64,000 nt of DNA from Octopus sinensis (taxonomy: Eukaryota): assembly GCF_006345805.1 (NCBI RefSeq), contig NC_043012.1, forward strand, positions 55,614,001 through 55,678,000, given 5' to 3'. The position numbers and the translations under genes are program-made. Below, in pieces: positions 59,515-64,000 of the stretch (positions are counted from its first letter, which is position 1; each line of letters starts with the position of its first letter). The notes under the pieces are model-generated. The model was not told where the DNA came from. It was given only the letters and a program-made list of their open reading frames with translations, and searched no databases.

Positions 59515-62500
59515 AGTGGATTTAGTGAACTAATTAACTAATTTAATAATTATAATTACTAGTATTACCTGCTGTGCTTGAGGAGACCTATTGAGTCAAG
59601 TACATCAACATCAAAATAAATATCAAATGGAAATTGTAGTTTGTGCCGGTGGCACGTAAAAAGCACCATCCGAACGTGACCGATGCCAGCGCCGCCTTGA
59701 CTGGCTTCTGTGCCGGTGGCACATAAAAAGCACCAACCAATTGTGGCCACTGCCAGTTTCCCCTGGCACCTGTGCCGGTGGTTGGCGTTAGGAAGGGCAT
59801 CCAGCAGTAGAAACACTGCCGGATCAGACTGGAGCCTGGTACAGCCTCTTGGCTTCCCAGACCCCGGTCGAACCATCCAACCCGTGCTAGCATGGAAAAT
59901 GGACATTAAACGATGATGACTAGTATAAATACAATGTAGAGGAGCATGGCTTAGTAGTTAGGGTGTAAGACTGGTTTTGATTCCTGGACCAGGTGATGTG
60001 TTGTGTTCTTGAGCAAAACTTCATTTTATGCTGTTCCAGCCTACTCATCTGGTAAACATAAGTAATCCTACAATGGACTGGAATCCCATCCAGGGAGGAA
60101 TATATACACCAGAGAAACTGGAAAACCAACCCTATGCTCCTTATGAAGTAGTGTGGACTAACCAGTATAAATACAAGACCAAACAATTTTAGAGAGAGAG
60201 AGATGTAGTGGCTTTAACAGACCTCATAATTAACATAGGACATAATATATTTAATATAGATACCAGGCAATACATTAAAGAAGCAAGATAAGGGTAATGT
60301 ATTTAATAAATGTATTTGGGATTCAATTTATAATTATAATAATTTCTAACAGATATAAATGCACATGGTCATGCTTTTATTTATTTTTTAAAGTAGGTTA
60401 TGTGAAAAGTTTAGAATTTTTCAAAATAAATTTTTCAGATCCCATAGAAATTTCTTAAAACTGTAAATATGTGAACTGTAAGATCAGAAAGCAAAGAATG
60501 CGTGTACAAAGTAAGTGACTGGCTGTCGCCCTACTAACCAATAAATTTTGTTAGAAGAAGCTGTATACTCACTTGTAATTTTACATTTGCTGGCATCACC
60601 TGTGGGTTTAGAACAAGCCTTGATGGGGCTGGTTGGAATCTCAACGCCACCGAATTTGATTTTGATTGTGTAGACACCAAGATCTTCAGGAGTGTAAGTA
60701 ACATTAAATGTGCCATCACCATTGTCATGGATGATCGGTTTAACGAACGTGCCGTCTGGTCTCTATTTAAAATAAAGTAAACTCGTTAAGTATCACAAAT
60801 TGTGTGTGTGCATGTGTGGTAGTGTTGTGCAAATATGCGATAGTGGTGTTGTGAGATGTAATGGATAATAAAATTTTTTAATCAGAAATTTGCAACACAC
60901 TAATTTCTTAAAAAAAAAAAAAATTACTTTAAATTTAAAAAAAAAAGGTGATTATTGGAATGAAAATTTGAAACCCCTGTGAAAGTAACTCCAATACAAT
61001 AATAGCATAAATGTTGGCTGGTTGATTGATTTCTCCAGCTACACTTTACATCATGTAGAGGATGGGGAGAGGATAAAAGACAGATACAGAGAGTTAAGAG
61101 ATGTGGGATGAGTGCAAATACTAAGCTTGGTGGCAGATAATGAGTGAAGGAATGTTTTACACACAATGAAAGGAAGAAAAGGAGAGGATATAAATGATAG
61201 AAATAATGGGAGGTGTTATGTAAATGAGAAATGTTTTATTTACTTTTATTTTAAGAATTAGTATTTATTTCATTTTGTATAAACAAAGAAATTTGATAAA
61301 TTTAAATTATTGTATGTATGTTATATTTCCTGAAATTATCCCTAGTGGAAAAATACAAAATTACCTGTCACATGACTAATAACACTAATTAAAATATATT
61401 TACCTGAATTGACACTTCTAAGTCTGCAATTCCTGCCTCAGTGGTATCGATGCAGAATGACACAGGAAGACTAGCAGGGACATCATTCACCCCAGGACCA
61501 TAAACACGAACTTTAGTTGGATCAAAACCTGGTTTAACAGGCATATTAAATGGACTGGAAAATAACAACAACAATTGAAAGTGGAAATAGTGAAAACATA
61601 CATTTGTTTTATGGAGATTAATCTTAATCATAAGCACAAAAAAAAAGGCGATAATTATTGATTTTGAATATGGGCAAAAGGTCATTTTTAAAAAAAAATT
61701 TTTAACAGGGGCATAGTCAGTTATAATTGACTTGGTACTTTCCTTAATGTGAGGATGATAATGACAATGGTTAGGAGCTGGATTTGCAGTTATAAGGCTG
61801 TAGGTTCAATTCCAGGACTGGGCGGTACTTTGGGTTCATGAGAAGGGCATTTCATGTTACTCCAGCCCATGGCTGCATCATTATCATTCTCCAGTGTTTT
61901 CTTAGGAATGGTTTCTATGGCTAAATGCCATCCCTAACACCAACAAAGTTACTGGGTGCTATTTTCAATGATACCAGCACTACTGAGGTCTCCCTGCAGC
62001 TTGCGGGACTACAAGCTTCAATAGAGGTGACTTCATGCTACAAGATAAGGGGCCGCAGAGCAGGGTACAAACCAGAACAAATATTTTGCTACAGAGAGGG
62101 TGAGAATGACAGGGTGGACCTGGAAAGAAGAATATTTAATAAACTATATGTTTATTGTTACTAATTAGTAATAAAAGAAATTTACCTTTTTGGCACATGT
62201 TGGTTAGCATATTTCACATCAAGTTGGCATGGACCTTCTTCAGGTACTGTGTAATTAGCCTTGAAAACACCTTCTTCAATAGGATGAACATCAGCTGGCC
62301 TCTTACCTAGATATAGAGAATTTACACTTTGATAAAAAAACCTGTATTGCTCTTTTACACACACGTACACAACTTTACAATCACATTTCTATGCTAGGGT
62401 TGGATGAGTACTTGATACCCTTCCTGATGCCAACCCATAGCTGGTTTTCATGTAAGCTACTTAATTTCATTGGTCTTTGCACATCAAACCAATGAGCGCT

Positions 62501-63366: not shown

Positions 63367-64000
63367 CTGAAAGACAAAAATGTTGGAAAAAAAAGTTGAG
63401 AAATGATCCAAGGATTCTTTAGTACAAGGGAATTATTTATTGCATATGGTTCAAGATGAGGAATAGAACTTTATCACCACTAACTCCTGATGAAGGAACC
63501 TCTATATCAGTAGTTTTCAGCCATCTTTTGCCTAAAGACTGATTTCTATTTTATTCTACTGGATCTTCCTATAACCATTCAATGTTTAAAAAAGTTCCAT
63601 TATATTTTTATATCATCATCATCATTTAGTGTGTGCTTTCCATGTTGGCATGGGTTAGATAGTTTGACTGGAACTAGTAAGTTGGAGAGCTGCACTAAGT
63701 TCCAGTTTAATTTAGCATGGTTTCTATGGCTGGATGCCCTTCCTAATGCCAACCACTCCAAGAGTGTAATGGATACCTTTTACATGCCAGTTTCATGACA
63801 CAGGCCATGCCAACTTGATGTGAAATAATTGCACTACAAAATGTTTGAAATATTTTGTCTATCGTAGACCAGGTTGTGTGTTGTGTTCTTGAGCAAGACA
63901 CTTTATTTCTCATTGCTCCAGTTCACTCAGCTGTAGAAATGAGTCAAGACGTTACTGGTGCCAAGCTGTATTGGCCTTTGCCATTCCTTTGGATAATATT

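Follow-up and report, generated by a model that had tools for sequence, protein, structure and literature searches.

Does a short intronic sequence that is exactly complementary to a coding exon constitute a substrate for RNA editing, a splicing switch, or the trace of a repair event? The question is raised by a locus of Octopus sinensis (assembly GCF_006345805.1, contig NC_043012.1), where the window, i.e., the whole stretch of 64,000 nucleotides that was analysed (positions 55,614,001 to 55,678,000 of the forward strand), carries a 23-nt inverted copy of part of a filamin exon within a filamin intron. A preliminary description of the window proposed that this copy was a templated insertion serving as an editing-complementary sequence (ECS) for ADAR or as an exon-skipping loop.

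A unique inverted copy in the filamin gene

The host gene encodes filamin on the minus strand and extends from about 55 kb past the right end of the window to about 20.5 kb within it. The predicted filamin-A protein of O. sinensis contains 22 filamin repeats (22 Pfam stretches), and counting from the protein sequence places the exon of the exonic arm in the second half of repeat 11. The label "Ig13" given to this exon in the preliminary description, which follows vertebrate filamin numbering, is therefore replaced here by repeat 11. Along the transcript, exon A, which lies beyond the window, is followed by 446 nt of intron, the intronic arm, a further 438 nt containing an old SINE copy (SINE1), and exons B, C, and D (Table 1). 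Spliced contigs confirm the A-B and B-C joints.

Table 1. Positions of the inverted arms and neighbouring features, numbered within the window unless a chromosome is given.
Feature	Position	Strand	Remarks
Exonic arm (template)	62210..62232	-	Codons Pro-Cys-Gln-Leu-Asp-Val-Lys-Tyr, filamin repeat 11 of 22; 7 adenosines on RNA strand
Intronic arm, exact inverted copy	63805..63827	+	Intron upstream of exon B; 446 nt past exon A donor, 438 nt before exon B acceptor
Filamin exon C, 121 nt	62186..62306	-	Acceptor within predicted loop, 74 nt before helix; donor 24 nt past helix
Filamin exon B, 174 nt	63193..63366	-	Looped out by predicted helix; present in RNA contigs
SINE1, old SINE copy	63612..63807		36/178 positions off majority of 40 best relatives; tail missing at junction; last bases overlap start of intronic arm
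10-nt SINE1 motif	63644..63653	+	Reverse complement equals first 10 nt of intronic arm; possible fold-back primer or microhomology
AT-rich filler, 38 nt	63828..63865	+	First 30 nt single-copy; no template >12 nt within 10 kb
SINE2, second SINE fragment	63866..63950		5/78 positions off majority; other copies extend ~50-60 nt further towards junction
Second inverted pair, 20 nt, filamin intron 1	G000:C16:55716995-55717014 and 55717967-55717986 (L006/L007)

The two arms are exact reverse complements over 23 of 23 bases and lie 1572 nt apart, in agreement with the preliminary description, which also gave the codons of the exonic arm correctly. In the 2.72 Gb genome the 23-mer was found at 2 places, whether matches had to be exact or up to 2 mismatches were allowed, and the reversed control at 0, all of these counts being lower bounds. 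A DNA search with positions 63770-63870 as query returned only itself, and a metagenome scan for the 23-mer gave 0 matches. From base composition, about 0.25 perfect inverted pairs of at least 23 nt within 2 kb would be expected genome-wide; with one arm coding, this expectation falls, by a rough estimate that assumes 1-2% of the genome to be coding, to roughly 0.01. Among 39 filamin exon matches, only that of exon C has an inverted match longer than 15 nt within 10 kb. The match is real, non-random, and unique, and stands as far beyond chance as was first proposed. Origin of the 23-mer from a repeat consensus, which the preliminary description had named as a refuting finding, was ruled out by its presence at only 2 genome places, even with 2 mismatches, together with the base-composition expectation.

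An intronic copy of this kind might also stem from faulty assembly or be an allele private to the sequenced animal, and the same gene does hold a 647-nt tandem exon copy (96% alike, with a frameshift) that is maybe a local assembly flaw. However, consensus errors do not usually take the form of a cleanly flanked inverted patch of 23 bases whose source lies 1.6 kb away. In addition, contigs under another organism label agree with the adjoining intron up to position 63675 at all but 1 of 338 bases. The probability of this explanation is small. Contigs of 4 DNA-type runs (three organism labels, 4 studies) gave 9 pieces matching positions 63765-63875, none at least 95% alike and none covering 63809-63820, in a comparison that passes a filter omitting records, so that a gap there proves nothing. 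These 9 pieces resemble other SINE copies and AT-rich chance matches.

Two further irregularities were observed in filamin. The tandem copy (L005:1608-2245 vs. L005:493-1135) duplicates part of an early filamin exon and may be a true duplication or an assembly flaw; the original exon carries the equivalent of the N130 recoding site discussed below. In O. vulgaris, the filamin annotation is split (P0002/P0128): one protein ends in EEGP, at the first arm codon, matching window position 62230, and the second part starts at the next Met (MPVKPG) in exon D. This split likely reflects a base error or a private allele, since the RNA contigs compared here have exon C intact.

A predicted helix and filamin recoding

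A 23-29 bp helix between the arms is predicted in the pre-mRNA. When a 1751-nt segment was folded, all 23 arm pairs were present in the minimum-energy structure at 20 and 37 C, with a probability of 0.86-1.0. Three extra pairs across a 1-nt bulge at one end, which had been noted before, and three more across a 2-nt bulge at the other bring the helix to 29 bp (-46.5 kcal/mol, or -37.5 kcal/mol for the 23 bp alone). As an equilibrium prediction, the helix would form in the cell only if exon C were transcribed before removal of the intron that precedes exon B. Two longer inverted arrangements were also observed in the window. Two SINE copies in opposite orientation, at positions 59778-59919 and 63616-63756, are 74% alike and could base-pair with each other over exons B to E; SINE1 has a further inverted partner just past the window, the two being 74-76% alike to it. 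The last two coding exons of filamin are flanked by an inverted duplication, almost perfect and several hundred bases long, at positions 18076-18593 and 23348-23730, with perfect runs of 95, 57, 50, and 42 nt, which could give an RNA duplex much longer than that of the 23-mer.

Editing-complementary sequences for ADAR usually form an imperfect duplex in which a mismatch or loop selects the site, although this rule is not absolute, and ADAR acts only modestly on short perfect duplexes that lack an A-C mismatch. The preference for an imperfect duplex, again not absolute, is also described for squid ADARs (PMC10278661). The filamin helix consists of 23 perfect pairs, has no A-C mismatch, and offers no such site-selecting imperfection. 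ADAR could edit the predicted helix at a low level, which would make it at most a weak substrate, and the intronic arm behaves like an ECS in prediction only and is not classed as one here. The closest known system is mammalian FLNA, in which an ECS in intron 42 serves a Q-to-R site in exon 42 (PMC6166124). Like this and other ADAR ECSs, the octopus arm is an intron segment complementary to a filamin coding exon, with a helix long enough for ADAR. In contrast to the FLNA element, the octopus arm concerns a different repeat and site, lies two introns upstream rather than in the adjoining downstream intron, and is predicted to form a short, perfect helix without an A-C mismatch.

The helix could be a newborn editing substrate, accidental in origin but edited in neural pre-mRNA at 5-30%, so that several recoding sites would come from one mutation. 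The sites concerned would most plausibly be Gln (CAA to CGA), Lys (AAA to AGA), and Tyr (TAT to TGT), together with adenosines of the intronic arm. Besides the pairing probability near 1 at both temperatures, this reading draws on the editing of octopus filamin in neural tissue at three other sites, at levels of 0.20-0.52 (PMC9989829), and on the ability of squid ADAR1 and ADAR2 to edit perfect duplexes, observed with a 711 bp substrate (PMC10278661). It has to contend with the modest activity expected on short perfect duplexes and with a partner two introns upstream that disappears as soon as its intron is spliced.

Evidence from RNA also bears on it. Contigs with spliced joints came from 4 runs taken as RNA, under one organism label and from 3 studies. 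With the 4 DNA-type runs, this makes 8 of the 24 runs listed. In all 4, exon C contains 0 other letters, and hence no A-to-G letter, at the majority level and in unknown tissue. Because such contigs drop minor variants and are blind to editing below about half of the reads, only a majority-level change in exon C is excluded; minor variants favourable to a newborn substrate would be hidden. The RNA-DNA mismatches that the preliminary description suggested looking for do not occur at the majority level, minor variants being invisible in contigs. At the protein level, the sequence CQLDVKY is unchanged in 13/13 cephalopod proteins spanning the arm codons, 7 of them from assembled runs, and no short protein fragment with recoded residues was found at E 1e-12 among 4 candidates. 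The arm Tyr is retained in 130/133 aligned homologue stretches, so that a Y>C change would likely be harmful.

In O. bimaculoides, three filamin sites (N130D, N130S, and I1535V) are given in Table S5 of PMC9989829, with levels of 0.20-0.52 and a listing criterion of an editing level of 0.1 or more in 2 or more samples. Mapped onto P0133, in which the arm corresponds to residues 1160-1167, 0 of these 3 sites fall in the arm codons, although this species may lack the intronic arm. The readable supplement parts of PMC8382921, PMC9699675, and PMC9068888 yielded no match to "filamin" or to the coordinates. Recoding of the arm codons, as first proposed, has thus found no support so far in the exon C contigs, the cephalopod proteins, or the listed O. 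bimaculoides sites. A newborn editing substrate is unlikely, and it is about as unlikely that a single slip of DNA repair, in which 23 bases of coding sequence were written in reverse into an intron, gave octopus filamin new ADAR recoding sites in one step.

The known filamin sites also inform on what recoding needs. At the equivalents of N130 and I1535, the best partners within 3 kb have predicted energies of -22.2 and -26.8 kcal/mol, as compared with a background of -23.4 +/- 3.1 kcal/mol for 60 exonic adenosines and -43.3 kcal/mol for the arm, whose helix is far stronger than any other in the gene. Since these equivalents are predicted to pair at background energy, known filamin recoding goes without such an inverted copy. 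Moreover, squid ADAR2 edits mature messages and acts outside the nucleus, and mature squid messages can be edited in the absence of intronic sequence (PMC7192619). Consequently, the premise of the preliminary description that coleoid recoding needs exon-intron duplexes was too strong.

Two individual positions are worth recording. Window position 49558 is the equivalent of O. bimaculoides I1535V (0.40), and the local intron-exon fold predicted there is not significant (z -1.48). At window position 34880, which matches the mammalian FLNA Q-to-R site, Gln is retained (SLQEKG) near the donor of its exon. No strong partner for it was found in the next intron (-30.2 vs. -31.6 +/- 3.1 kcal/mol for shuffles), and this Gln is absent from the O. 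bimaculoides recoding sites listed in PMC9989829.

Splicing around exon B

Long-range RNA pairings that loop out exons are formed by inverted Alu pairs and by conserved complementary regions. Like these, the octopus helix encloses an in-frame exon; unlike them, its arm is coding on one side, the next acceptor lies inside the loop, and no skipped form was seen. The preliminary description was right that exon B is looped out and that its 174 nt can be skipped in frame, but the loop does not hold exon B alone: the acceptor of exon C, 74 nt inside, is enclosed as well and does not lie beyond the loop as a distal acceptor. Skipping of exon B removes 58 residues across two repeats in frame, whereas skipping of exon C or of exons B and C together breaks the frame and gives stops. 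The geometry therefore speaks against a skipping loop.

In the spliced contigs, the C-B joint is present in 3 of the 4 runs and the B-A joint in all 4, and no A-C joint occurs among the 15 joints displayed of 43. Likewise, the B-C join is intact in 14/14 cephalopod proteins that cover it. With exon B included in the contigs of 4/4 runs, at the majority level, the proposed exon-skipping loop has not been supported so far. Neither recoding nor skipping is seen at the majority level.

Origin of the intronic arm

The intronic arm lies where two truncated SINEs meet, as first described. SINE coverage stops at 63789-63807 and restarts at about 63866, and comparison with other copies shows SINE1 without its tail and SINE2 without its head at this junction. 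The loss of both parts is indirect evidence for a break or deletion join. At the junction point, copies of an older SINE subfamily continue as ..GACAC..GCCA(C/T)G, and about 5 of the 23 bases of the arm can accordingly be SINE-derived. Microhomology at the left junction would amount to about 5 nt as judged from SINE relatives, or to 10 nt with the SINE1 motif, and the right junction has no clear microhomology.

The SINE-like start of the arm leaves room for a chance composite, in which joined SINE debris with SINE-like 10-mers at both ends happened to match the exon. The 10-mers that open and close the arm are over-represented in the background sample (9 vs. 1.1 and 20 vs. 8.9 expected, respectively), they occur in SINE1 and SINE2, and the old SINE tail shares a 7-nt piece. 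Nevertheless, no other place in the genome resembles the 23-mer within 2 mismatches, neither 10-mer is flanked by continuing SINE sequence, and the exact spacing and the middle bases would still need to match. Such a coincidence deserves hardly any credence.

Age bears on the question of selection. SINE1 differs from the majority of its relatives by 20% and SINE2 by 6%, and a copy this perfect probably either postdates SINE1 or has been preserved. Preservation would be expected of a selected ECS or splicing switch retained for tuning filamin. A perfect 23/23 match within a 20%-diverged SINE has a probability of 0.006 if equally old, the match is the sole one of its kind among the 39 exon matches, and mammalian FLNA provides a precedent for a functional intronic ECS (PMC6166124). 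However, given the divergence of the two SINEs, the perfect 23-mer needs youth and not selection: at the age of SINE2, the probability rises to 0.22. The site also differs from that of mammalian FLNA, no edited or skipped form was seen in the contigs, the cephalopod proteins, or the O. bimaculoides list, and the products of skipping would either lose 58 residues over two repeats (exon B) or be out of frame (exon C or B and C). The prospects of a selected element are therefore slim.

The arm is probably a young templated repair scar from a polymerase template switch, likely without selected function. A break or deletion between two SINE copies would have been repaired with a template switch, in which the broken end, finishing in the SINE1 bases CCATG, may have annealed by microhomology, possibly after a fold-back onto positions 63644-63653 that lengthened the primer to 10 nt. 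Synthesis would then have continued for 13-18 bases on the opposite strand of exon C, at a distance of 1.6 kb, before the end rejoined the intron. The templated insertion proposed at the outset is supported in this respect by the truncated SINEs, the SINE-like arm start, and the frequency of local inverted copies, although insertion is inferred only, because no pre-event allele was seen. Several features sit less easily with a scar: the template is 1.57 kb off, the right junction lacks clear microhomology, the 38-nt filler has no template, the arm helix is the strongest in the gene, and filamin does undergo recoding in octopus neural tissue (PMC9989829).

Comparable events are known. Germline inverted templated insertions with microhomology, of MMBIR type, have been studied for templates within 100 bp (PMC8421209), and short-range template switches, described by a four-point model, have a median of 12 nt and templates tens to hundreds of nt away (PMC7954356). 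Like the scars of polymerase theta-mediated end joining, these consist of a short inverted copy of a nearby template, and the intronic arm is itself a short inverted copy of a unique local template. Further likenesses are the probable microhomology at one junction, the apparent deletion join, and the germline setting (PMC8421209; PMC7954356). The filamin case differs in that its template lies 1.57 kb away instead of within about 100 nt (PMC8421209; PMC7954356), in that the template belongs to a coding exon within the same transcript, and in that the ancestral allele was not seen. At 1572 nt, it exceeds the narrow range of short-range template switches (about 100 to a few hundred nt), but local inverted events in this genome reach about 2 kb. 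No prior description of the filamin intronic arm was found in the open-access literature.

The background of such events was drawn from a sample of 1.353 Mb from four chromosomes, window included (650 kb after masking). Short inverted copies cluster within 2 kb, with a genome-wide excess: 37 of the 40 local inverted events lie within this distance (11 less than 100 nt apart and 26 at 0.1-2 kb), and 3 lie at 2-20 kb. Short isolated events make up 8 of the 40 (7 besides the filamin arm pair), and 4 of these 8, the filamin arm pair included, fall at 0.1-2 kb. Among the initial 6 background inverted pairs, 2 were transposon ends and 2 lay in repeats, and, of 3 background words counted across the genome, 2 proved to be repeats (861 and 164 places), so that the true rate of templated copies rests on few cases. 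A rough inference from these suggests thousands of such inverted copies genome-wide, some tens of them with a coding template.

As it stands, the arm is an ordinary type of mutation that happens to involve an exon. If it were edited, it would bear on the birth of coleoid recoding sites. If this were true and tens of such scars existed genome-wide, templated insertion would give rise to new recoding sites in coleoids species by species, each of them dated. Being unique and datable and having a predicted helix, the 23-base arm offers a clean natural experiment, in which the same exon can be compared with and without its partner across octopus species.

Other inverted words of the sample are of a different nature. 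The 20-mer at G000:C16:55515967 (861 places, frequently in pairs at about 250-285 nt) and the 18-mer at G000:C8:5148242 (164 places, frequently in pairs at about 1.2 kb) are likely terminal inverted repeats of DNA transposons. A second genome-unique perfect inverted pair, of 20 nt and 952 nt apart, has both arms in filamin intron 1 (Table 1).
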